Origin: Candidatus Methanoperedens sp.
Lineage (GTDB): Archaea; Halobacteriota; Methanosarcinia; Methanosarcinales; Methanoperedenaceae
Reading direction: 5' to 3'
Length of the DNA: 32,000 nt
NCBI GenBank assembly: GCA_027460535.1
Contig: JAPZAR010000006.1
Location: 79,981 to 111,980, forward strand
Shown piece by piece: positions 1 to 18,925 of the stretch (its first letter is position 1; the number at the start of each line of letters is the position of its first letter). The notes under the pieces are model-generated. The model worked only from the letters and a program-made list of their open reading frames with translations. It did no database searches and was not told the DNA's origin. The translations under genes were made by a program, and so were the position numbers.

Positions 1-515
1 AGATCTGATTTGGTGAGAATACTTACAAAAGGAATGTTAAATCTGACCTGGACAGAGGCTCCTTGAAGCATCAATGAGATAAAACCGGATGGATTTCTTG
101 AAATGACGGGATCATAGAGAAAACCGATGATAGACTGCTGGGCCCCAAAAGATTCAATCAAGTATTTTCCAGATTGCCGCAGGACAAATAATTCCATCTG
201 GCCCGGGGTATCAAAAATAGCGTATTCTGCTTCAAAACTTTCAATTATTTCTTTCATTTCATTGATATTCATTGCAAGCATATCAGCAGCTATGATCTGT
301 GCCCCGTTAGGTCCGACGCCATGCTCTTTCATGATATCACGCAACTTTACCCACTCCCTGATATCCACATCAGGAACGTAAGGCGCGTTTTCAATACCAG
401 GGTCAAGGTTAATTGTTACCGCATCATACCCCTTGCTCTCCATCCAGCCAGCATAGGCACCTGTGAGGGATGACTTGCCGCTTCCTGCCGAACCGATAAA
501 ATAAAGGTTAATCAT
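1..515 (-). CDS. GPN-loop GTPase (PAB0955/XAB1-type ATP/GTP-binding protein); 3' end cut by the window edge
   Basis: My own minus-strand translation from the ATG at 515-513 gives MINLYFIGSAGSGKSSLTGAYAGWMESKGYDAVTINLDPG...HGVGPNGAQIIAADM...FDTPGQMELF. It has a P-loop (GSAGSGKS), the diagnostic GPN motif and DTPGQ. The ORF runs off the window, so it is missing from the ORF track. Confidence 0.8.
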   Translation of the reverse strand, partial: MINLYFIGSAGSGKSSLTGAYAGWMESKGYDAVTINLDPGIENAPYVPDVDIREWVKLRDIMKEHGVGPNGAQIIAADMLAMNINEMKEIIESFEAEYAIFDTPGQMELFVLRQSGKYLIESFGAQQSIIGFLYDPVISRNPSGFISLMLQGASVQVRFNIPFVSILTKSD

Positions 516-559
516 TTGTATCAGGGGGATAATATCGGTGATAAGAGAAAAGATTTGTG

Positions 560-1435
560 ATGCTCGCTAAACTGAAGTTATATGCGGATTTTGTAGTCAT
601 CAAGCATACCCTCTTCGCGATTCCTTTTGCTTACCTTGGCGCATTCCTTGCAAGCAGGGGAATTCCGGAGCTTCGAATCCTTTTCTGGGTAGGGCTTGCG
701 TTTCTCGGAGCACGCAGCGCGGCAATGGCACTGAACAATCTTATCGATAAGGATATCGATGCAAAAAATCCCAGGACCGCCAGCCGGGAGTTGCCTTCAG
801 GAAAGATAAAATTATACGAAGTATGGGGAATCATTCTGGTTTCTTATGGGCTGCTATTCTATTCTGCTTACAGATTGAACCCTCTATGCCTTCTATTGGC
901 ACCCATTATCCCTGTTACTTCGATCATATATCCATATCTGAAGCGGTTCAGTCCAGTGACGCATTTTGTATTGGGGCTCAACCTTGCATATGCACCCGTA
1001 GGGGGCTGGCTTGCAGTCACGGGCGAGTTTGCAATTCCTTTCGGCGCTGCGGAGCTTGGAATGCTGCTGCTGCTGTTCGCGGTCACTTTCTGGGTGGCCG
1101 GGTTTGATATGATCTATTCGCTGCAGGACATTGATTTTGATGAAAAGAACAGGCTTTATTCCATACCTTCTGTTTTCGGGGTGAAAGCGGCGCTTGGGTT
1201 GTCGTTCGCGGCGCATGTTCTGATGGTGGCGTTGCTTGTCGGGCTTATGTATGTGCTGAAACTCGGGGTGGTTTTTAAGGCAGGGCTTGTGATCATCGCT
1301 GCGCTGATATGGTATGAGCATACGCTGGTAAAGGTTGATAATTTTAACAATGTCCCTGTGGCGTTCTTTAATGTGAATGCGGCGGTGAGTCTGTGCTTGC
1401 TGTCTTTTACGGCGGCGGATGTGCTTGTGAAATAG
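560..1435 (+). CDS. UbiA-family aromatic prenyltransferase (4-hydroxybenzoate polyprenyltransferase-like; possibly quinone or methanophenazine biosynthesis)
   Basis: Track ORF 557..1435; the ATG at 560 follows directly after the GTG. The protein is polytopic and hydrophobic. It carries two Asp-rich motifs, NNLIDKDIDAKNPRT and DMIYSLQDIDFDEKN, which are typical of the UbiA superfamily. Confidence 0.85.
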   Translation: MLAKLKLYADFVVIKHTLFAIPFAYLGAFLASRGIPELRILFWVGLAFLGARSAAMALNNLIDKDIDAKNPRTASRELPSGKIKLYEVWGIILVSYGLLFYSAYRLNPLCLLLAPIIPVTSIIYPYLKRFSPVTHFVLGLNLAYAPVGGWLAVTGEFAIPFGAAELGMLLLLFAVTFWVAGFDMIYSLQDIDFDEKNRLYSIPSVFGVKAALGLSFAAHVLMVALLVGLMYVLKLGVVFKAGLVIIAALIWYEHTLVKVDNFNNVPVAFFNVNAAVSLCLLSFTAADVLVK

Positions 1436-1437
1436 CG

Positions 1438-2421
1438 CATCTTTTTAATACCAGTAATCAGTATTCAACTTCTTCAGCAATTTCCGTAAATGTCTCTATT
1501 CTTGCAGCAAGGGCTGCCAGATCTTCGGGATGGATCAGAGGACCTCCAAGGATTTCTCGCAAGCCAGCCTTCTCAAAATTCTTGTTCATGCCAGTATTAC
1601 TTCTTTTTTCTGTGATTGCGTCGTTATTGTTCCATTCCTTACTCTGAGACGTTCTTGTCTCTGAACTCGCCTCTTTATATGTAATTATTCCGGAAACCCC
1701 AAATTCTATTCGAATTCGAGCTTCCTTATAAGATTCTTGATCAGTAACACCTGATGCATCAAAATTTGTATCAAACGTGGAAAGGGTCCCCTTCTGTACA
1801 TATGCACCAATTTCCCAATCTTTATAAAATCCCTTTGTCGTCTCAGCCATCAGATGTGTTCCACGTATAACAGCTGCCTCACCAAATATGCCTTCGAAGG
1901 TCAAATCCTTTATATTTTTCTTCTTGACCATTTCCTTAACACCTGATAAAGCCCCAAAGAAAGCGGCAAAATCTTTCGGACCAAATGACGAAACATCAAG
2001 TTTAGCGCCGCATTCCTTCATGGCTCCAAGAGGGTTCTCAAGGGCAAACAAGAAAAATTCATCACTTTTAATTGCCTTTTCAACAAAACGCTTCAATCCA
2101 ATAGATCGCACAGGGATGGTTATGCAGATCCTTTTTTGTTTATTCATACTTATCACTCCACTCTCATCGGGATTCTTTCACCCTGCCGCTGGTGATTATT
2201 CTTGACATTACCACCACATAATGGATTTTCAATCCCGCTCAAATACAAATTGTCATGAGCATGTAAATATCTTTCGGTATTATAATTGTAAAATAGAACT
2301 TGTTATTTCACCGTTGTTACCCAGAATCCAAAAATCCCTTCTACTTCAATCTCAATAAATTCGACCCGATGAAAATTTGTGGCATCTAAGATCTTAATTT
2401 CACCCTGCATCTATTCCACTC
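1438..2421. repeat. Segmental duplication, copy A (~0.98 kb; paralog A gene plus ~270 nt of its upstream region)
   Basis: I aligned 1438-2421 against 3920-4860 by eye. The two are near-identical except for a replaced central block (1663-1800 versus 4145-4230). Confidence 0.9.
1458..2147 (-). CDS. Hypothetical protein, paralog A: NHLP/Nif11-leader-like N-terminus, variable polar middle, GG motif plus conserved acidic 27 aa tail (candidate RiPP-type precursor or rSAM substrate)
   Basis: Track ORF 1458..2156. I prefer the ATG at 2147 because a GGAGTGAT Shine-Dalgarno-like site lies 4 nt upstream. The segment GLKRFVEKAIKSDEFFLFALENPLGAMKECGAKLD fits the NHLP/Nif11 leader helix pattern. The C-terminus reads ...LREILGG-PLIHPEDLAALAARIETFTEIAEEVEY. 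A paralog lies at 3944..4577. Confidence 0.6.
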   Translation of the reverse strand: MNKQKRICITIPVRSIGLKRFVEKAIKSDEFFLFALENPLGAMKECGAKLDVSSFGPKDFAAFFGALSGVKEMVKKKNIKDLTFEGIFGEAAVIRGTHLMAETTKGFYKDWEIGAYVQKGTLSTFDTNFDASGVTDQESYKEARIRIEFGVSGIITYKEASSETRTSQSKEWNNNDAITEKRSNTGMNKNFEKAGLREILGGPLIHPEDLAALAARIETFTEIAEEVEY

Positions 2422-2510
2422 GCCCGGCGCATCCTCTCCACCGCATCCGCCGAGCCATCTTCACCCAGCCTGAGCGCCGGGAGTAATGCGCCGCCCAGAA
2501 AGACTTTATA

Positions 2511-2540
2511 TATCTGCGTTCATCTGCGTTTATCTGCGGT
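2511..2540. repeat. Imperfect 3 x 10 bp tandem repeat (tatctgcgtt / catctgcgtt / tatctgcggt)
   Basis: Read directly in the sequence. It lies inside a non-coding spacer. Confidence 0.8.
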
Positions 2541-2844
2541 TCGTATGTCCACAGGAGGTTGCTTCGGTAACATATCGGCGCCGCTCTGTCTGAATTATTA
2601 TCAAAACTTCCAAATCCTGCTTCATCTGCGCCAGCCCATGCGCCTCCTCCCCACCGGTATCTTCCTCACCTCAAATTCATTGCGCCTCTCCCTCAACCAC
2701 CACTTGCGCACACTCTCTTTTAAAAACGTTGGGGTCTATGCCTTATGTAAAGATATCGTACAACCATAAGATACAACTACGTCAGTAACAAAATGATGTC
2801 GATGAATATATTAAAAAAGAGCGGGAGAGTTGGCAGGGCTGGTA

Positions 2845-3915
2845 CTATGTAAGCGCTGTTTCCGCCTTAAGAGCCTTAATTTCTTCCGAGGTTCGCATAT
2901 GATCGTAAAGGCATCTTTCCAAAGAGATTTCTATGGCTTTTTCATGACCAAATTCTGAAAGCACTGCCCTGCAATCTTCTCTCGTAAGGATTTCGCTGCA
3001 TAAATGGCAATTGTTAACATACTGTTTTCGAAAAGGGATATCGGGGTTCTTCTTGAGAATAAACTTCATGAGCCCATAAGGCCCCTCAAGCGCAAGCCAG
3101 TTAACGATGAGGTCTTTATGCGCCATGATTATCAGTTCTTCTAATTTATATTCATCAAGGGTGCCAAAAACAATCTCCTCAACCTTTCTCGGGACCATTC
3201 CACAACAAATAGAAAGTTCTTTGCGCGGAGTTATTACAATTCGTTTAAGGATGGACGAACACGGAGCTTTCCAGTGATTCTCGCATGGAGGATAGAGTAT
3301 TTCCTCGTCGGGAATCAGGTGCATGTTCTCCGCTATAGGTACCGTGTATCCTGTATCGACCAGATTGTTGTCTGGATTTTTCTTCTTTGGATCGAAACGA
3401 GAAAGCTTGTATCCCAAAAATTTTTCGAGGTGATCCAGCGAAATAGTGCAGTTTTTCATAATTTTATGCCCGATAAGACAGGGAAGCCCAACTTCTATGC
3501 AAGCATCATTTGCGTATTTTATCCTTTCAAGGGGTATGAACTCCTGATGATAATCGTCGCAGCTGAGGTTTATTTCCTTTAACCCTGCTTCTTTGTATGA
3601 CTTCATGGTGTCTCTTGCCACTTCAGGCGTTCTTGCCCAAAACGCATTTGTAACTATTCTTGTTAAGAGTCCCTTTTTGGCACAATATTTTACACTATCG
3701 AGGAGATCATCCCCAAGAAGAAAAGGCTCGCCTCCCGTAAAGACTACCAGTTCCAGTTTTCCAAAAGAATATACCTCATCCACTATTTCGATCATATCCT
3801 TTAGAGAAAGACGTTCTGTATGCTCTGGACCGCACTCTGCCCCGCAGTACCTGCAGCTTATCGGGCACTGGTATGTGGTGGAAAAGACAAGGCTGGAAAG
3901 CATATCATCTCTCAC
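2845..3915 (-). CDS. Radical SAM enzyme with an extra C-terminal Cys-rich (SPASM/twitch-like) region; candidate peptide/protein maturase
   Basis: Track ORF of 356 aa. The canonical Cx3Cx2C motif CPISCRYC is at 3844-3867, followed by GGEPFL. Further cysteines occur at PPCENHWKAPC, SICCGM and NNCHLC. The start is a GTG at 3915, or an ATG 12 nt downstream at 3903. It lies 28 nt downstream of paralog B. Confidence 0.85.
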   Translation of the reverse strand: MRDDMLSSLVFSTTYQCPISCRYCGAECGPEHTERLSLKDMIEIVDEVYSFGKLELVVFTGGEPFLLGDDLLDSVKYCAKKGLLTRIVTNAFWARTPEVARDTMKSYKEAGLKEINLSCDDYHQEFIPLERIKYANDACIEVGLPCLIGHKIMKNCTISLDHLEKFLGYKLSRFDPKKKNPDNNLVDTGYTVPIAENMHLIPDEEILYPPCENHWKAPCSSILKRIVITPRKELSICCGMVPRKVEEIVFGTLDEYKLEELIIMAHKDLIVNWLALEGPYGLMKFILKKNPDIPFRKQYVNNCHLCSEILTREDCRAVLSEFGHEKAIEISLERCLYDHMRTSEEIKALKAETALT

Positions 3916-3919
3916 TGAA

Positions 3920-4860
3920 CATCTTTTTAATGCTAGTTATCATTATTCAACTTCTTCGGCAATTTCCGTAAAAGTCTCTATTCTTGCAGCAAGGGCTGCC
4001 AGGTCTTCGGGATAGATCAGAGGACCTCCAAAAATATCTCCCAAGCCAGCTTTGTCAAAATTCTTGTTCCAGCCATTAGTACTTTCTCTGTTTCTGATAG
4101 CATCCTGTTTGTCCCATTGCTTATCCGAACCCGAACTTGTCTCTTTACTGGGATCTGCAAATGTATTTCCTATAATTTCCTATCGACCTCGAAATATTTA
4201 TCACTCGTTGAAAGAACCTGTTTTTGGGAATATGCGCCTATTTCCCAATCTTTATAAAATCCCTTTGTCGTCTCAGCCATCAGATGTGTCCCACGTATAA
4301 CAGCTGCCTGACCGAATATGCCTTCGAATGTTAAGTTCTTTATATTTTTCTTCCTGACCATTTCCTTAACACCTGATAAAGCCCCAAAGAAAGCGGCAAA
4401 ATCTTTCGGATGGAATGATGATGCATCAAGTTTAACGCCACATTCCTTCATGGCTCCAAGAGGGTTCTCAAGGGCAAACAAGAAAAATTCATCATTTTTA
4501 ATTGCCTTTTCAACAAAACGCTTCAGTCCAATAGATCGCACAGGGATGGTTATACTGATCCTTTTTTGTTTATCCATACTTATCACTCCACTCTCATCGG
4601 GATTCTTTCACCTTGCCGTTGGTGATTATTCTTGAAATTACCACCACATAATGGATTCTAGATCCCGCTCAAATACAAATTGTCATGAGCATGTAAATAT
4701 CTTTCGGTATTATAATTGTAAAACAGAACCTATTATTTCACCGATGTTACCCAAAATCCAAAAGTCCCTTCTACTTCAATCTCAATAAATTCGACCGATG
4801 AAAATTTGTGGCATCTGAAGACCTTAATTTCACCCCGCATCTATTTGTAATTCCACACTC
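3920..4860. repeat. Segmental duplication, copy B (~0.94 kb)
   Basis: Same by-eye alignment as copy A. The duplicated block ends immediately upstream of the rnp4 start. Confidence 0.9.
3944..4577 (-). pseudogene. Paralog B of the NHLP-leader-like protein, frame-disrupted. The N-terminal 135 aa ORF ends at a TAG at 4170-4172, and the homologous C-terminal part continues in another frame down to a TAA at 3944-3946.
   Basis: Track ORF 4170..4586 differs from paralog A at 9 of the first 119 residues. My translation of 3947-4180 in the other frame gives EIIGNTFADPSKETSSGSDKQWDKQDAIRNRESTNGWNKNFDKAGLGDIFGGPLIYPEDLAALAARIETFTEIAEEVE*. That frame has no ATG. Confidence 0.65.
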
Positions 4861-4870
4861 ATTAAACCTC

Positions 4871-5176
4871 ATGCGCAAAAAACAGAAAGATTGGGCAAAG
4901 GACATGGCGCACCAGCGAATCGTCAGGCTTTTTGAGCTTGCTGGCCAGGAATTCAGAACGCATCCCGAGCGCAGCGACAGGTATGTGAGGCTGGCAAGGC
5001 GCATAGGGATGAGATACCGCGTCAGAATCCCGGAAGGGCTGAAACCGCGAATTTGCAAACACTGCCATGCTTATCTGGTCCAGGGGGTAACTGCACGCAC
5101 AAGACTCCAGGGAACCCATATTGCAACGACCTGTACAGCCTGTGGAAAGCAGATGAGACGCCCTTATCATGCTTGA
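4871..5176 (+). CDS. rnp4: Ribonuclease P protein component 4 (Rpp21/Rpr2 family, zinc ribbon)
   Basis: Track ORF 4808..5176. I chose the internal ATG at 4871, giving MRKKQKDWAKDMAHQRIVRLFELAGQEF...RYVRLARRIGMRYRVRIP...ICKHCHAYLVQG...CTACGKQMRRPY. It has the typical Rpp21 helical N-terminus and a CxxC...CxxC zinc ribbon. Confidence 0.85.
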   Translation: MRKKQKDWAKDMAHQRIVRLFELAGQEFRTHPERSDRYVRLARRIGMRYRVRIPEGLKPRICKHCHAYLVQGVTARTRLQGTHIATTCTACGKQMRRPYHA

Positions 5177-5191
5177 AGGAAAGGCATCAAT

Positions 5192-5632
5192 TTACGGTTT
5201 TTTGAATGTTATCTGGGAAAATCCTATCTTTTCATTGAACATCCTTTCTGCCTGGATATCCAATTCCATAATAAAAACCTCAAGCACCATGAACGCCTCT
5301 GCCTTTTTTCTGATACAGCCCATTGTCAGTCCTTTGCTGCTGCCTGCCGTTGCATGAAGGTGTATTTTAGGGGAGCCGTTTTCCATGGATATATTGCCAG
5401 CTCCGATGATCTCTCTCACGTCACTAAATTCAGACCAGACTATGTCTGGCGGAACAGATTTCTCACGTGGTCCTGTAACCAGCTTTGCCTCTCCCATTGC
5501 CCCGATCACCATGAAGAAAGCTAATGTTATATCTTCCTTGAGCGCCAGACCCGTTAACTCATTTAGCAAATCTTCGCCATGGTCAACCCTGACCATAAAT
5601 ACCCTGCCAATTGAACCCTTTCGATAATCCAT
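5192..5632 (-). CDS. PPC/DUF296-domain protein (predicted DNA-binding protein family)
   Basis: 146 aa. MDYRKGSIGRVFMVRVDHGEDLLNELTGLALKEDITLAFFMVIGAMGEAKL matches the pattern typical of archaeal DUF296 proteins. Confidence 0.7.
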   Translation of the reverse strand: MDYRKGSIGRVFMVRVDHGEDLLNELTGLALKEDITLAFFMVIGAMGEAKLVTGPREKSVPPDIVWSEFSDVREIIGAGNISMENGSPKIHLHATAGSSKGLTMGCIRKKAEAFMVLEVFIMELDIQAERMFNEKIGFSQITFKKP

Positions 5633-5726: not shown

Positions 5727-5800
5727 GGGCCCGTGGTCTAGTCGGTTATGACATCGCCTTTACATGGCGGGGATCCGGAGTTCGAATCTCCGCGGGCCCA
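5727..5800 (+). tRNA. tRNA-Val (anticodon UAC), no intron, CCA not encoded
   Basis: I folded the cloverleaf by hand. The acceptor stem is GGGCCCG/CGGGCCC. The anticodon stem is TCGCC/GGCGG with loop TTTACAT. The T arm is CGGAG-TTCGAAT-CTCCG. Total length is 74 nt. Confidence 0.9.
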
Positions 5801-5964: not shown

Positions 5965-7353
5965 ATGAGAAATAAAAAGGTTACTTATGTTTTAGTGTCG
6001 CTGCTAATCATTGCCGGGTTGATCGCGGCTGGTTGCGTGGGCCCAAATCAATCCGCTGCGCCCAAACCAACAGTAAACGAAACAATTGCTGTCCAGCAGT
6101 CCACTGAAAACGATCGCATGATAGATCAAAATGCCAAAACGATGATGGAACAGGGCAGGCAAATCTTTCGTTTTGACACTTTCGGCGATGAAGCCTTCTG
6201 GGGCGATTCTCTTAAGCTGCATCAGGCCATCGCAGGCACGGCTAATGGTGGCGTGGGACCGGGCGTGAGCCCGAAAACAGCTTTAGCTGTAGGTTTAAAA
6301 GTCGATATGGATGCGCTTCCGAAAGAACTGGTTGATAATCTGAAAGCTGGCAAAGTCAATCTGGATGACCCGGCCACTACGCTTGCGCTTCTTAAGCTGA
6401 ACGCTGTTGTTGGAGTTAATGGTTCATTTGATAATTCTGGAAAACTCAGTTCAATTGGAATTACATGTGCTCTTTGCCACTCAACAGTAGATGATTCGTT
6501 CTCTCCGGGCATTGGCCACCGCCTGGATGGCTGGGCAAACCGCGATCTTAACGTTGGAGCAGTTGTAAATCTTTCCCCCGATCTTACATCTGTAGCCAAA
6601 ATTCTGGGCGTTCCTGAAGCTACAGTGCGAAAAGTACTCAACAGTTGGGGTCCAGGGAAATTCGATGCAGAGCTTTTCATGGATGGTCCCGCCAAAGCTT
6701 TCCGTCCGGATGGAAAGTCAGGAGCCACACTGATCCCGCCAGCGTTCGGTCTTGCAGGCGTGAACCTTCATACCTGGACAGGATGGGGTTCCGTACCACA
6801 CTGGAATGCATTCGTCGCCAATCTGGAGATGCACGGTAAGGGGAATTTCTTTGACCCTCGATTGGATAATGCATCTCAGTTCCCGATAGCTGCTGCTAAT
6901 AGGTTTGGTCATGTGACTATCGATCCTGACCAGGATATGATTACTTCAAAGCTTCCTGCCCTTCAGTTCTACCAGCTTTCCATTCCCGCTCCCAAGCCAC
7001 CTTCAGGCAGTTTCAACGAGGAGGCAGCTAAGCGGGGGGACGAACTCTTTGGAGGGAAGGCCGGTTGCGGCAAGTGCCACATCGAGCCTCTGTGGACGGA
7101 GCCAGGCTGGAATATGCACAAGCCCAGTGAAATCGGTATCGACGATTTCCAGGCTAATAGAGCGCCTGATCGAAGTTATCGCACATCTCCGCTAGCGGGA
7201 CTCTGGACTCATCAGAAAGGTGGCTTCTACCATGATGGTCGCTTTGCCACTCTTAGGGATGTGGTAGATCACTACAACAGCTTCTTTAAACTGAACCTGA
7301 CCTCACAGGAAGAGAATGACATTGTCGAGTATCTGAAGTCAGTCCCGGACTGA
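5965..7353 (+). CDS. Di-haem c-type cytochrome, cytochrome c peroxidase/MauG-like, probable lipoprotein
   Basis: A GGAGG site lies upstream of the ATG. The N-terminus has a signal sequence plus a lipobox-like AAGC. Two CxxCH motifs are present: CALCH at 6466-6480 and CGKCH at 7066-7080. The C-terminal segment GGFYHDGRFATLRDVVDHYN...EENDIVEYLKSV resembles the CCP/MauG family C-terminus. Confidence 0.75.
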   Translation: MRNKKVTYVLVSLLIIAGLIAAGCVGPNQSAAPKPTVNETIAVQQSTENDRMIDQNAKTMMEQGRQIFRFDTFGDEAFWGDSLKLHQAIAGTANGGVGPGVSPKTALAVGLKVDMDALPKELVDNLKAGKVNLDDPATTLALLKLNAVVGVNGSFDNSGKLSSIGITCALCHSTVDDSFSPGIGHRLDGWANRDLNVGAVVNLSPDLTSVAKILGVPEATVRKVLNSWGPGKFDAELFMDGPAKAFRPDGKSGATLIPPAFGLAGVNLHTWTGWGSVPHWNAFVANLEMHGKGNFFDPRLDNASQFPIAAANRFGHVTIDPDQDMITSKLPALQFYQLSIPAPKPPSGSFNEEAAKRGDELFGGKAGCGKCHIEPLWTEPGWNMHKPSEIGIDDFQANRAPDRSYRTSPLAGLWTHQKGGFYHDGRFATLRDVVDHYNSFFKLNLTSQEENDIVEYLKSVPD

Positions 7354-8656: not shown

Positions 8657-9328
8657 TTACTTTTTTTTAACTTCCACAACATCAGACGCGGTGAATGGGG
8701 TGCCTGCAGGACTATTCTTTGCTTCAAGGAGCCATGTATATTTGCCAGCGACTCTGGGGCTGGTGAGCGTGCCTTTAGACAACTCTACTTTTACCATTTC
8801 GTGACTCAATATGGGACCTGCTATTCCACCGAGAGAAAGGTTGAGGTAACCAGGGGTGCCAGAAGTTGGCTTGGTAAATTTGAGAGAAGTAGTACCGATG
8901 ACCATGTTCGTCATAAGTAGACCTCTCTTGGTTCTATAAGTATGACCGGAATCCGTTGAAAATCTTACATCAACGGTTTCATTTGCTGTGTTGTTTGAAA
9001 TTATATAGATTATTACTTTAGATTTATTCATCTTATTGAACCAGGTGTATTTGATGACTGTTTTGCCCGGCGAGGGAAGACCGAACGAATAACCCTTTGG
9101 AATTGTTGCATTAAGGAAAAAAAATCCGCCAGGAGGGGCGCTTTCTGCTTGCATGTTGGCTTGATATTCATGATCAGAAGAACTAACGACGGTAACATGC
9201 GGCTCTATGCTCAGTTTTATACCTTGATCAGGAGCCTGCGCAGGCACCAACATTACCATTATTAAAATCGGAGATAAAACCAAAAATGTTAAAACAGACC
9301 GCGATAAATTGTTATACTTTTTATACAT
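8657..9328 (-). CDS. Hypothetical secreted protein
   Basis: 223 aa. The N-terminus has a hydrophobic signal or anchor (LTFLVLSPILIMVMLVPAQA). The rest is beta-rich. I recognise no family. Confidence 0.55.
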   Translation of the reverse strand: MYKKYNNLSRSVLTFLVLSPILIMVMLVPAQAPDQGIKLSIEPHVTVVSSSDHEYQANMQAESAPPGGFFFLNATIPKGYSFGLPSPGKTVIKYTWFNKMNKSKVIIYIISNNTANETVDVRFSTDSGHTYRTKRGLLMTNMVIGTTSLKFTKPTSGTPGYLNLSLGGIAGPILSHEMVKVELSKGTLTSPRVAGKYTWLLEAKNSPAGTPFTASDVVEVKKK

Positions 9329-9521
9329 ATTAATCTCCTTTTACTTCGAAAATATGAAAGCTCCACCTTAATCCACTAAAATCAAATACAGCTCTTTACT
9401 ATTTATACTCATCGGTATAACTATTATAAATATTATATTAATTATAATGATAATCCCCATGTATCGAGACGATAGTTTTATCACATATGTAAAAGAATGT
9501 GATTCCCGGGAGGCTCTAAAA

Positions 9522-10349
9522 ATGTGGTTCTTTAATAACAAGCCGCTGGGCATCGCAATATTTTCCATGACCCTTGCAATTCTTTTTTTCTCCATCATCC
9601 CGGCATCTGCAACCACAGTAATCTCTCTTGACAATACCGTTGATACTCCTGACAGGACAGTGACATATCAAGATAAGAACTATGAACTACAAGATGTGGG
9701 CGCGTATCTTATCGGTGAGCCTGTTAACATAAGTGTTAATGTCACGGATATAAATAGCTTCCAGCTCTCGCTTCTGGATATGAAAGAAGATTTCCTCTGG
9801 AACAACATGGTTTATTATACCGGGGGAAAGGCTGAAATGATCATGCCTGCATATGTGGTTACCATCCCTGGCACCTACATCTATGCAGTATTCTATCAGG
9901 GAGACATGGTGGCCTTCAAACCCGTGGTTTTCTCTCAAAATAAAATTACTATTTCACCGGACAGGACTACAGTCGCTCCCGGAGGCTCGCTGCATATCAA
10001 AGTCAAAGTTATCCCGGATACCAGCATGCCCGTTAAGGTAGTGCTTGCAAAAGATAGCAGTAGCCTTGAATATCCCGTTAACCGCACCCATGAAGGGTCA
10101 TATGAAACTGAAATAAAGTTACCTATGAGCGCCTACGGCAGATTTTCTTTATATGGCGCTATAGTATCGGAGAATAAGGTCATGGGAACTGATGAATTCA
10201 TGGGGATTTCTAATGCAGGTACTATAAATATAACCGACATTCCCCAGTCTGGGCTTCCCTCAAAATCTGGTGACTACTCTTTATTGACAATTCTCTTCGT
10301 ATTTCTTGCCGGACTTCTTCTTCTGGTATTCAGAAAAGGAAAGAGTTGA
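9522..10349 (+). CDS. Hypothetical secreted/surface protein with a C-terminal transmembrane anchor
   Basis: Track ORF 9447..10349. I prefer the ATG at 9522 (MWFFNNKPLGIAIFSMTLAILFFSIIPASA looks like a signal peptide). The body is Ig-like and beta-rich with N-x-S/T sequons. The C-terminus LLTILFVFLAGLLLLVFRKGKS looks like an anchor. Confidence 0.6.
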   Translation: MWFFNNKPLGIAIFSMTLAILFFSIIPASATTVISLDNTVDTPDRTVTYQDKNYELQDVGAYLIGEPVNISVNVTDINSFQLSLLDMKEDFLWNNMVYYTGGKAEMIMPAYVVTIPGTYIYAVFYQGDMVAFKPVVFSQNKITISPDRTTVAPGGSLHIKVKVIPDTSMPVKVVLAKDSSSLEYPVNRTHEGSYETEIKLPMSAYGRFSLYGAIVSENKVMGTDEFMGISNAGTINITDIPQSGLPSKSGDYSLLTILFVFLAGLLLLVFRKGKS

Positions 10350-16196: not shown

Positions 16197-17417
16197 ATGC
16201 ATGTTAATGCAGATCTTCACATTCACTCAAAATACAGCATGGCAACATCCCCTAAAATGGACCTGCCCACGCTTGCCGCAGAATCAAGAAAGAAGGGGAT
16301 CCAGCTTGTGGCCACAGGGGATTGCCTTCATTCAAAATGGCTCGATGAGATAAAAAAGTTAGATGAAGAAAACGGGATTTTCAAATTGAAGACCCAGGGG
16401 ATGGATGCAAATTTTGTGCTGACTGTAGAAGTTGAAGACATAAACCAGGTACATCATCTCCTGATCGTTCCTTCTGTATCAAAAGCCGAAGAACTTCGCG
16501 AGATACTGAAACCCCATTCCAGGGATATCGACTCGGACGGAAGGCCCAATGTAAGACTTAACGGTGAAGAGATCGCCGAAGCTGCGAGGTCGGCAGAATC
16601 GCTTATAGGTCCTGCCCATGCTTTCACGCCGTGGACTGCCATGTATGCGTACCACAATTCTCTGAAGGATTGCTACGGTGATATGGCCGATCATATATAT
16701 TTCATCGAACTGGGACTGAGCGCAGACACCTCTTACGCGGACAGGATTTCAGAACTTAGCTGCCTTACCTTCCTTTCAAATTCGGATGCGCATTCCCCTT
16801 ATGTGAATAAGCTTGCGCGGGAATTCAACCGCTTTGAGATGAGTGACATTAGTTTTGATGAGCTTAAGATGGCGATAATTAGGGAGAAGGGGAGGAAGCC
16901 GGTTCTCAATGTGGGTATGTATCCCGAGGAAGGGAAATATAATGAAAGTGCCTGCATCCGGTGCTTTAAACATTACTCTTTTCGCGAGAGCATCATAAAA
17001 AGCTGGACATGCTCATGCGGCGGAATGATCAAAAAAGGCGTGAAGGACAGGGTAAATGAACTGGCTGCATATGATAAACCCAGGCATCCGCCCCACAGGC
17101 CCCCTTACCTTCACCTGGTACCGCTGTCAGAGCTCATCGCCATGGCATTGGGAATAGGTACCAATACAAAAGGTGTTAACGGGGTATGGAATACGCTAAT
17201 AGAGCGGTACGGTTCAGAGGTTGCGGTCCTGGTAGATTCCGATATTGGTGGATCAGGGGTGGATGAGCGCGTCATGAATGCGATAATGGCGTTCAGGAAA
17301 GGAAAAGTTAAAGTCCATCCGGGGGGAGGAGGGCAGTACGGGCGAGTCGAGATATCGGATAAGAACTGCATGAATAACGAAGGATGTGAACCTCAGAGAT
17401 CATTGTTTGACTTTTGA
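16197..17417 (+). CDS. Endonuclease Q (EndoQ; PHP-domain plus zinc-finger nuclease acting at deaminated bases)
   Basis: 406 aa. It is collinear with my memory of Pyrococcus EndoQ: ADLHIHSKYS..., VHHLLI, GRPN, IGPAHAFTPWT, ELGLSAD, SNSDAHSP, REFNRF, CxxC...CxCGG, IKKGVKDRV, GGGGQYG. Confidence 0.8.
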   Translation: MHVNADLHIHSKYSMATSPKMDLPTLAAESRKKGIQLVATGDCLHSKWLDEIKKLDEENGIFKLKTQGMDANFVLTVEVEDINQVHHLLIVPSVSKAEELREILKPHSRDIDSDGRPNVRLNGEEIAEAARSAESLIGPAHAFTPWTAMYAYHNSLKDCYGDMADHIYFIELGLSADTSYADRISELSCLTFLSNSDAHSPYVNKLAREFNRFEMSDISFDELKMAIIREKGRKPVLNVGMYPEEGKYNESACIRCFKHYSFRESIIKSWTCSCGGMIKKGVKDRVNELAAYDKPRHPPHRPPYLHLVPLSELIAMALGIGTNTKGVNGVWNTLIERYGSEVAVLVDSDIGGSGVDERVMNAIMAFRKGKVKVHPGGGGQYGRVEISDKNCMNNEGCEPQRSLFDF

Positions 17418-17851: not shown

Positions 17852-18925
17852 ATGAAAAAACAGAAAATCATGATTTTCATTTTTGCTACAATGATCGTGT
17901 TAATGTTCATTACCTTCGCCTCCTTGCAGAGCAGCGATTCGAAGATCGCCCCTCTTGTTTATGCGTTAGAGGGATCGGATGAGAGCGTACCCGTTATTAT
18001 TGTTTTAAAAGAAGAACCCCAGCAATCGCAAACATCGAAGCTGTCAAAGATAGAATCGGTCAACAGCATCAAATCACGGGCAGCCGAAAGCCAGATTAAG
18101 GTCATGAGTTCCATCCATCAGGAAGCATTAGGAGGTGATGCCGATGCTTTAGTATACTCATCTGGTGTAATTAAAGCCACAAATATAGGGAAGGGTTCTG
18201 CTGGGGTAATCCATTTCAGCACATTTTCTTTGGCCGGTGCCAAGGCTACCCCCTCGCAGCACACTGGTTTTCCCGAAAGCTGTTGTGGAACCGGTGGTGT
18301 GGTAACAACGTTAGAGCCTTATGAAAACATAGCTAAGGCTGAAAGTTATGAAAAGGGCCTTATCGCTAACTTACCTGTAACATACACATTCACGGCGCCT
18401 GAGCTTGGTATATATGAGATAGCTGTTACGGGCAGGGACAGCGAAAATGACATAGCTCTGAGGGTAGAAGCCTTGAAAAGTACATCAAAACGTGTCTCTG
18501 CCGAAGCTCCCGGAATTGTTTATAGATACCTTAACATATGGGCAGGTACCAGGGAGATCAAAGAAGCAGCAATAAGGTTCAAGGTCAATAATTCCTGGCT
18601 TGCCATCAACAATCTTGAAGGCAGCGATGTCAAGATGGTCAATTGGGACGGCCGCAAATGGGCACAACTTGAAACCATAGAGATCTCCGTAGACCCATCT
18701 TACAGATATTATGAAGCAAGGACCGATACGTTCTCTCATTTTGCTATAAGTGGACTGAAAGGCGTAGCAGTTCCAACAATCACGCCATCAGAGACAGCTC
18801 AGGCTATGACAGATGCTCCGGGAGTTACCAAAAAAGCGTCTGCTGAGCCGGTAAATCTGGTGGTTATAGTAGCTGTGATCCCTTTGATCGCTATCCTTGC
18901 AGGTATGTATCTCAGGAGGAAATAG
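17852..18925 (+). CDS. Secreted surface protein, PGF-pre-PGF-like domain, C-terminal transmembrane anchor
   Basis: 357 aa with an N-terminal signal or anchor. The segment GIVYRYLNIWAGTREIKEAAIRFKVNNSWL...VKMVNWDGRKWAQLET...YYEARTDTFSHFAISG resembles the archaeal PGF-pre-PGF domain. The C-terminus is VIVAVIPLIAILAGMYLRRK. Confidence 0.6.
   Translation: MKKQKIMIFIFATMIVLMFITFASLQSSDSKIAPLVYALEGSDESVPVIIVLKEEPQQSQTSKLSKIESVNSIKSRAAESQIKVMSSIHQEALGGDADALVYSSGVIKATNIGKGSAGVIHFSTFSLAGAKATPSQHTGFPESCCGTGGVVTTLEPYENIAKAESYEKGLIANLPVTYTFTAPELGIYEIAVTGRDSENDIALRVEALKSTSKRVSAEAPGIVYRYLNIWAGTREIKEAAIRFKVNNSWLAINNLEGSDVKMVNWDGRKWAQLETIEISVDPSYRYYEARTDTFSHFAISGLKGVAVPTITPSETAQAMTDAPGVTKKASAEPVNLVVIVAVIPLIAILAGMYLRRK

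Follow-up and report, generated by a model that had tools for sequence, protein, structure and literature searches.

A 32,000-nucleotide (nt) stretch of a Candidatus Methanoperedens sp. genome (assembly GCA_027460535.1, contig JAPZAR010000006.1, positions 79,981 to 111,980; hereafter, the window) carries a gene for a radical S-adenosylmethionine (SAM) enzyme between two paralogous genes for a long hypothetical protein, all on the minus strand. We refer to the enzyme as rSAM and to the protein as X. The question that this locus raises is whether X is a substrate of rSAM and, if so, what the enzyme does to it. The initial annotation of this DNA proposed an archaeal system resembling those that make peptides synthesized ribosomally and modified post-translationally (RiPPs), with X as the precursor and rSAM as its maturase. 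The three genes are as follows:

1458–2147, minus strand: paralog A, an X protein of 229 amino acids (aa) and putative substrate or precursor; intact open reading frame (ORF), with 21 close homologues and 49 cluster representatives in 1.84 billion proteins
2845–3915, minus strand: the radical-SAM gene, EpeE/YydG-type (PF04055, E 8e-15)
3944–4577, minus strand: paralog B, an X pseudogene with its N-terminal 138 aa in frame and its tail in another frame

If the enzyme and X belong together functionally, their genes should also be found together elsewhere. Both families are rare and patchily distributed. We found 227 rSAM homologues at E ≤ 1e-5; for X, a word-indexed search returned 21 homologues, and the 49 cluster representatives came from a full profile search. 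Five genomic contexts were fetched by exact protein (Brocadiia, a metagenome contig, Sedimenticolaceae, Acidobacteriota, and Zixibacteria). In all five, a Pfam-less ORF of ~180–245 aa lies directly upstream of rSAM on the same strand, and the contexts have nothing besides the pair in common. A survey of one genome per GTDB species yielded 36 rSAM loci, which come from Planctomycetota (Brocadia and Phycisphaerales), several Proteobacteria and Desulfobacterota lineages, Acidobacteriota, Nitrospirota, Chlorobiota, Sericytochromatia, Armatimonadota, Chloroflexota, Bdellovibrionota-type lineages and, among the archaea, two Bathyarchaeota and one Methanotrichaceae archaeon. A hidden Markov model (HMM) of X detected a homologue touching rSAM at 27 of these loci, immediately upstream on the same strand in 24 cases and immediately downstream in 3. 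At 7 further loci, the adjacent ORF has the X layout by eye and is too divergent for the HMM. Approximately 34 of the 36 reference-genome loci have an X-like ORF touching rSAM, and the remaining loci are masked or truncated. Since the pairing is conserved across more than 36 independent loci, it is not a chance observation. Archaea and bacteria from at least a dozen phylum-level groups show strict co-location of the two families, as the initial annotation of the genes as a pair implied.

The pair has no regular third member. All-versus-all clustering of the neighboring ORFs from 41 loci revealed no other recurrent gene; antisense shadow ORFs make up the only other clusters found at 4 or more loci, and no remaining cluster extends beyond 3. 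The absence of a protease or exporter, first noted close to the window genes, extends to the family: no protease, exporter, or immunity gene is conserved in this clustering, and no ABC/C39 exporter was seen at any locus. The cassettes often adjoin integrases, transposases, or pairs of HEPN and nucleotidyltransferase (NTase) genes. The closest relatives of the Methanoperedens rSAM are from Brocadia (L006 and L007), with 77–79% aa identity, while those of other archaea have 43–45%; the closest X homologues are likewise from anammox Planctomycetota, with P0010 labelled Brocadiaceae. The mobile-element neighbors and the Brocadia-closest enzyme both indicate horizontal spread. The closeness to Brocadia also suggests that the transfer was recent, the two partners having nitrate/methane-fed habitats in common. 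We conclude that X and rSAM form a self-contained, horizontally spread two-gene module. The expectation that an archaeal version would be new was misleading, as the family is mainly bacterial.

What kind of enzyme is rSAM? The only Pfam match is the Radical_SAM core. The best NCBIfam match is TIGR04078 (YydG), which scores 73.9 bits over residues 8–133 only and falls short of the equivalog cut-off of 300 bits. The only strong match among PDB sequences is YydG/EpeE (E 4.6e-8 for a single-sequence query, 7e-20 for the family profile). We also modelled rSAM with AlphaFold2, using 23 homologues (predicted local distance difference test [pLDDT] 89.3, predicted template modelling score [pTM] 0.86). 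In Foldseek, this model aligns over its full length with the EpeE structures 8ai1–8ai6 (E 1.8e-17, TMq 0.71, TMt 0.78, 337 columns). The next match is BlsE, with a template modelling (TM) score of 0.49, and CteB, SuiB, and SkfB are weaker still; no match other than EpeE exceeds a TM score of 0.53. As modelled, rSAM has the overall fold of EpeE. With a RiPP epimerase as the best match in both sequence and fold, the view of rSAM as a peptide-modifying rather than a housekeeping enzyme was borne out.

The cysteines of rSAM point in the same direction. The invariant or near-invariant ones are C17/C21/C24, C119 (in SCDDxHQE), C219, C237–C238 (CCG), and C303/C306 (CHLC), of which the following were mapped:

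3844–3867, minus strand: radical-SAM cluster motif segment, containing the CPISCRYC cysteines C17/C21/C24; near-invariant in 23 homologues
3259–3261, minus strand: C219, invariant
3199–3207, minus strand: CCG (C237, C238), invariant; aligns with EpeE C222/C223
2998–3009, minus strand: CHLC (C303, C306), invariant; aligns with EpeE CGVC

In the profile alignment, the rSAM 'siCCG' falls on EpeE 'YPCCS' and CHLC on CGVC. EpeE carries two [4Fe-4S] clusters, and its Cys223 is the hydrogen-atom donor that completes epimerization (PMC13012085, PMC8326336). The equivalent cysteine of rSAM is invariant in 23 of 23 aligned homologues, and all other family sequences read have the CC pair, with the exception of one paralog at locus L037. 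From their conservation, C303 and C306, together with C219, are probable ligands of an auxiliary Fe-S cluster. The initial annotation had read the C-terminal cysteines as compatible with an auxiliary, SPASM/twitch-like domain. This was not supported: neither PF13186 nor any other Pfam family matches the C-terminal 157 aa at E ≤ 10, the CX2CX5CX3C / 7-Cys motif is absent, and the conserved cysteines follow the EpeE pattern. Among homologues, SPASM matches are sub-threshold or isolated only (17.6 bits at L037, and a precomputed match on P0108). The 'PPC' cysteine, which had been counted with the auxiliary domain, is not conserved across the family.

A distant branch of the rSAM family lies in a proteusin-like cluster at L037 (positions 158–4186 of Blastocatellia contig DATBMY010000113.1). 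There, a B12-binding rSAM-like gene (best matches ApyD and the methyl-coenzyme M reductase [MCR] Gln C-methyltransferase) is followed by an EpeE-like rSAM. Next come a 118–152-aa peptide with an NHLP-ish N-terminal part and a hydrophobic V/A/G/C core (AAIAVCFVATNVGVAGVVVCGVALY) and then a second EpeE-like rSAM, in which the CC pair is C-V. By analogy, this branch supports a RiPP role for the rSAM family.

We then asked whether X looks like a substrate. X proteins are 160–270 aa long across the family and share a four-part layout, given here for paralog A:

1863–2141, minus strand: N-terminal domain (N-domain), residues 3–95, with a 'KRI' strand, an NHLP-like helical core at residues 17–51 (nt 1995–2099), and 'FEGIFG' (nt 1881–1901)
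1680–1862, minus strand: variable middle, residues 96–156; polar, length-variable, pLDDT below 50
1563–1679, minus strand: Ser/Thr/Glu-rich (S/T/E) block, residues 157–195, YKEASSETRTSQSKEWNNNDAITEKRSNTGMNKNFEKAG; candidate modified region, from the family-wide alignment
1461–1547, minus strand: C-terminal tail, residues 201–229, GGPLIHPEDLAALAARIETFTEIAEEVEY; candidate recognition or modification site, with P-L-(I/L/V) at nt 1533–1541 followed by an amphipathic helix

The N-domain has the motif LK.F.EKA..D..FF..ALENP..AM.E.G..L, followed by a long helix and 'FE.IFG', and its mean pairwise identity is 0.67. AlphaFold2, run with 20 sequences, predicts helices at residues 16–27, 29–37, 39–45, and 57–77 (pLDDT 74–92). 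The middle is predicted to be disordered (identity 0.34, 18% gaps) and cannot be aligned between paralogs A and B; the linker from G89 to G202, which includes the S/T/E block, varies from 55 to 145 aa in homologues. The S/T/E block has an identity of 0.37 in close homologues, and its pattern, 'SE(S/T).RG..T(D/E)W....(S/T)..F', is recognizable in distant members too, with conserved aromatic positions. The tail reads 'xPL(I/L/V)xPxDL' plus an amphipathic helix (identity 0.63). G202, P203, and L204 are invariant in close alignments (A1 and A3), and 'PL' is kept in nearly all 35 aligned family members, while the preceding G is not. In the X model, the tail forms a helix at residues 207–227 (pLDDT 70–86) and residues 204–205 form a beta-bridge with residues 12–13, suggesting that the tail docks on the N-domain. 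X also occurs as tandem or duplicated paralogs with divergent middles and conserved ends, both in the window and at L001.

The N-terminus of X had been likened to the leaders of NHLP- and Nif11-type precursors, and we compared it with profiles of these families. Neither window paralog has a significant Pfam match. Against the NCBIfam/NHLP models, paralog A has no match and paralog B scores 15.1 bits with NF038399 (cut-off 40). Among 16 X members, matches to the NHLP clan recur: NF038399 in 13 of 16 (best E 1.3e-5), TIGR03793 in 5, TIGR04509 in 3, and PF14407 in 2 (3e-4). TIGR04509 also matches two divergent X members (7e-4 and 9e-4). These matches always fall on X residues ~17–80, and the NHLP clan is the only family matched by more than one X member, besides weak IniB_NTERM matches in four divergent members. 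The NHLP-clan scores shown are all under the curated cut-offs (13–27 bits against 34–40, the bit score of the best-E member excepted). PF07862 (Nif11) was never matched by X. The recurrent matches, taken from sequence profiles, identify the X N-domain as a distant relative of NHLP-type leaders that lies outside every curated model. The NHLP half of the original comparison therefore stands as distant kinship. For comparison, the NHLP-type leader of DprE2/MprE is a three-helix bundle followed by a beta-hairpin (PMC12537861).

Other searches with X returned little. The N-domain profile matched the nitrile hydratase alpha chain in the PDB weakly (6lk7, E 0.086), and the full-length X profile had no match among PDB sequences. 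Searched against a 5.8-billion-protein database, the N-domain-only profile (A4) retrieved only two family members and no annotated NHLP proteins. It should also be noted that residues 12–69 of the A4 profile weakly match PDB entries for fusion constructs of uteroglobin (secretoglobin), with an E of 3e-4 that is inflated by two copies. This likeness (a helical 'F..P...M.EAG..L') is probably convergent.

Taken together, strict pairing, a substrate-like X, and an EpeE-type enzyme with the hydrogen-donor cysteine kept lead us to the following mechanism. On balance, we favor a RiPP-like module whose EpeE-type enzyme would remove a Cα hydrogen from X, probably with epimerization as the outcome. The enzyme would reductively cleave SAM, and the resulting 5'-deoxyadenosyl radical would take the Cα hydrogen from one or more X residues. 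The most likely sites would be in the conserved C-terminal third of X, either in the S/T/E block, which has repeated polar-aromatic motifs, or in the PL(I/L/V) motif, which offers aliphatic residues of the kind that EpeE epimerizes (Val, Ile). Cys238, the counterpart of EpeE Cys223, would then return a hydrogen atom to the opposite face, giving D-residues. We infer the role of X as substrate, the epimerization, and its site from these comparisons, and X may be cleaved later.

Several observations weigh against this reading, which as a whole rests on sequence and predicted structure. On the enzyme side, rSAM scores just 74 bits with TIGR04078, far under the cut-off, and its identity with EpeE is only 18%. 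The alignment of the CC motif with EpeE comes from a weak second HMM domain (3.6 bits), and at the position that this same weak alignment pairs with EpeE D210, tentatively, no conserved Asp is apparent in the family. The mapping to C222/C223 further assumes a 25-residue N-terminal tag in the 344-aa PDB chain, in which the cluster cysteines are numbered 39, 43, and 46; we take the native CX3CX2C cysteines of EpeE to be 14, 18, and 21 and its native length to be 319 aa, which is the basis of the offset. On the substrate side, there are the sub-cut-off NHLP scores, the low model confidence in the middle of X, and the outcome of a Foldseek search of the X model against the PDB, which found no significant neighbor (best E 2; thiocyanate hydrolase gamma, 33 columns, E 8.6). 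Tail conservation and a size of 230 aa are unusual for a RiPP precursor, and X could be a partner or chaperone instead of a substrate. Finally, the lack of a conserved protease, exporter, or immunity gene gives no indication of a secreted natural product.

The first alternative keeps the pair and changes the chemistry: rSAM might crosslink X (C-C or C-O bonds to Trp or Phe of the S/T/E block), cleave its backbone, or splice it. An identity of 18% with EpeE leaves room for a changed reaction, as do the conserved aromatics in the polar motifs 'NF(D/E)', '(D/E)W', and 'KNF', the L037 paralog without the second Cys of CC, and the Foldseek matches to the crosslinking maturases CteB, SuiB, and SkfB. 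These last matches are much weaker than EpeE, which is by far the best structural match (TM 0.71–0.78 versus ≤0.53), and the near-universal hydrogen-donor cysteine also argues for epimerization. We consider such a change of chemistry unlikely. One version of it, thioether (sactipeptide or ranthipeptide) formation, was rejected as unlikely, as the family-wide alignment has no conserved Cys in the C-terminal half of X. We also rejected a glycyl-radical 'spare part' role for X, with rSAM as the activase of the Gly before PL: distant members keep PL and have V, T, A, E, S, Q, or R in place of the Gly.

A second alternative is that X is not a substrate at all, and acts as an accessory, substrate-presenting, or chaperone partner, or that the pair is a toxin-antitoxin or defense-type module. 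The folded N-domain with a tail predicted to dock on it would suit a partner protein, as would an rSAM without a RiPP recognition element (RRE) domain, and the frequent proximity of mobile elements and HEPN/NTase pairs would suit a defense module. However, PADLOC gave no match to X, only generic viperin-core matches to rSAM (residues 11–124), and no defense-system assignment. Multiplication of paralogs with a hypervariable middle is typical of substrates and not of chaperones, and the NHLP-clan affinity of X points to precursors. We therefore regard a non-substrate X as improbable in comparison with the EpeE-type modification of X favored above.

Less probable still is a classical double-glycine RiPP, in which residues 1–202 would be a giant leader ending in GG and the 27-aa acidic tail would be a core freed by a C39-type peptidase. 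The initial annotation had drawn this leader-GG-core geometry from the GG that precedes the tail in both window paralogs, and a papain/Peptidase_C39_2-like gene does adjoin the cassette at a sister Methanoperedens locus (L042). The family as a whole contradicts it. At the position of the first Gly, close homologues have G, V, T, S, R, N, A, or M, and distant ones have lost the second Gly (in GPL) as well. The tail has a mean pairwise identity of 63%, against 34% for the middle, which places it on par with the N-domain as the best-conserved part of X, whereas the core of a RiPP would show the opposite. Neither the window nor any of the other 40 loci has the peptidase, and no ABC/C39 exporter was seen at any of them.

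Coincidental adjacency of a housekeeping rSAM (for a cofactor, tRNA, or lipid) and an unrelated hypothetical gene, to which the housekeeping flanks of the window might point, has a negligible probability and is effectively refuted by the neighborhood analysis, in which two rare, patchy families enter unrelated contexts together in at least a dozen phylum-level groups, with different flanks each time.

In the window itself, the three minus-strand ORFs are present as initially annotated, including the 28 nt between the stop of paralog B (3944) and the GTG at 3915, and all of the peptides quoted for them (the NHLP-like stretch, LREILGG/LGDIFGG, the tail, CPISCRYC, KAPC, SICCG, and NNCHLC) were found in the sequence. 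The ORF of paralog A, the sole intact X copy in the window, spans 1458–2156; its ATG at 2147 gives MNKQKR..., which agrees with the starts of homologues, and its stop codon is at 1458–1460. A protein labelled Candidatus Methanoperedens (P0001) is 100% identical to it. The rSAM ORF encodes 356 aa from the GTG at 3915 and 352 aa from the ATG at 3903. The latter (MLSSLVFS) is the start common to all homologues and is likely the true one.

The region upstream of X was annotated as duplicated. This is so, and the duplication exceeds the coding sequence, with copy A at ~1438–2410 and copy B at ~3920–4830. The upstream parts are:

2148–2410, minus strand: duplicated promoter/5' untranslated region of paralog A; ~95% identical to 4578–4830, no Rfam match
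4578–4830, minus strand: copy of the duplicated region upstream of paralog B; directly precedes the X-rSAM operon, which is the ancestral position by synteny with L042

Between the copies, identity is ~95% over the ~260 nt upstream, ~93% over the N-terminal half of the coding sequence, and ~88% over the tail, and the middle is unalignable. Approximately 20 nt of the X-to-rSAM junction is repeated after copy A. Paralog B, correctly described as disrupted, has its first frame open from 4577 as far as a TAG at 4170; a different frame encodes the C-terminal 77 residues and runs to the stop at 3944. We compared it with the intact orthologue (P0004, at L042) in Methanoperedens assembly GCA_027460525.1, whose DNA is 94% identical. 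Paralog B has a frameshifting 55-nt deletion exactly between two GATAGAAA direct repeats (junction 4180|4179, in window 4170–4200, compared with L042 6398–6452). Because of this deletion, as read from the sequence, paralog B is a pseudogene or at best encodes the N-domain alone. The loss between direct repeats looks like slippage or a microhomology-mediated event, or possibly an assembly artifact. A 135-aa protein matching the paralog B N-fragment (P0009) is annotated in another Methanoperedens metagenome-assembled genome.

The gene order at L042 is Rpr2, papain/C39_2-like peptidase, X, rSAM, HEPN/nucleotidyltransferase pair, and UbiA. From this syntenic order, the ancestral operon was X followed by rSAM. 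In the window, 1438–2845 holds paralog A and a 430-nt non-coding spacer (2410–2845) where the corresponding stretch of L042 (7790–8990) has the HEPN/NTase toxin-antitoxin pair. The spacer contains short ACGCAGAT-type repeats. Rfam and tRNA scans found nothing in the spacer or the duplicated upstream regions; their sole hit was tRNA-Val at 5727–5800. In the window, the ancestral upstream copy B is dead, and copy A, whose promoter region was duplicated along with it, would provide the sole intact substrate. The L042 peptidase (4521–5306, minus strand) is a cysteine protease adjoining the X-rSAM operon (Peptidase_C1 E 6e-19, Peptidase_C39_2-like E 7.5e-6). It could be an occasional processing protease.

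The flanks of the cassette in the window are housekeeping genes: a UbiA/MqnP-like prenyltransferase (557–1435), RNase P Rpr2 (4808–5176), a PCC-domain protein, and the tRNA-Val, with an H+-pyrophosphatase, MoeA, and others farther out. A 462-aa ORF at 5965–7353 (plus strand) combines a hydrophobic segment at the N-terminus with two haem-binding motifs of the CxxCH type (CALCH and CGKCH) and has only weak Pfam cytochrome c matches. Probably this is a di-haem protein, secreted or anchored in the membrane, of a kind typical of Methanoperedens. Four other ORFs of 223–406 aa have no Pfam match at E ≤ 1e-3: 8657–9328 (minus strand), 9447–10349, 16197–17417, and 17852–18925 (all plus strand).

How does the X/rSAM module relate to known systems? 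Two unrelated lineages of rSAM peptide epimerases have been described, the PoyD-type of NHLP-leader proteusins and the EpeE-type of short epipeptides. Like EpeX/EpeE (YydF/YydG) of Bacillus subtilis, the module combines a substrate gene immediately upstream, if X is the substrate, with an enzyme that has no N-terminal RRE, the same predicted fold, CX3CX2C plus a second set of cysteines, the CC pair with the equivalent of Cys223, and a C-terminal CxxC. Unlike EpeE, rSAM falls below the TIGR04078 cut-off at 18% identity, and X is a 160–270-aa protein (229 aa here) with a folded, NHLP-like domain, whereas EpeX is a 49-aa peptide. The EpeP protease and EpeAB transporter of the epeXEPAB cluster have no conserved counterpart in the 41 loci. 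Epipeptides have been described as restricted to Bacillota (PMC13012085), whereas the X/rSAM module is found in archaea and many Gram-negative phyla.

Proteusins (PoyA, with PoyD-type epimerases) share with X a long structured N-terminal region resembling nitrile hydratase alpha, an rSAM partner, and often the lack of a dedicated protease. [quoted passage not shown] X also scores under the curated NHLP models, has no conserved GG, and ends in a conserved helix without a counterpart in proteusin cores. The 'Os1348 family NHLP clan protein' model NF038399, TIGR04509, and PF14407 (Frankia_peptide) resemble X at N-domain residues ~17–55, with (K)A..D..F...L.(N/S)P..A(L/M)...G(V/I).L, but X exceeds these proteins two- to threefold in length, in addition to the sub-cut-off scores given above. 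The SPASM/twitch maturases (AlbA, CteB, SuiB, PqqE) act on ribosomal peptides and, like rSAM, have a radical-SAM core and extra C-terminal cysteines; they are set apart by the PF13186 match and 7-Cys motif that rSAM lacks and by their low TM scores.

We found no description of the X/rSAM family in the literature. The module is not categorically new; what is new is that an EpeE-type enzyme is coupled with a protein-sized, NHLP-like partner. It is possible, if somewhat doubtful, that the cassette represents a new class of ribosomal products in which an EpeE-type enzyme puts D-amino acids or other Cα-radical changes into a protein-sized, NHLP-domain precursor that is not necessarily cleaved or exported. 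The range of this class would take in archaea (Methanoperedens, Bathyarchaeota, and Methanotrichaceae) and many phyla of anaerobic bacteria, and Methanoperedens and anammox Brocadia would have exchanged it. If so, it would amount to the enzymatic backbone editing of a protein, and not of a small secreted peptide.

As there are only two genes to co-express, the system is directly testable. If the enzyme modifies X, EpeE-type chemistry would extend far beyond Firmicutes, and the module would offer a minimal two-gene system for the recognition of large structured substrates. It would also mean that archaeal proteins might contain D-residues or other backbone edits made by radical chemistry.

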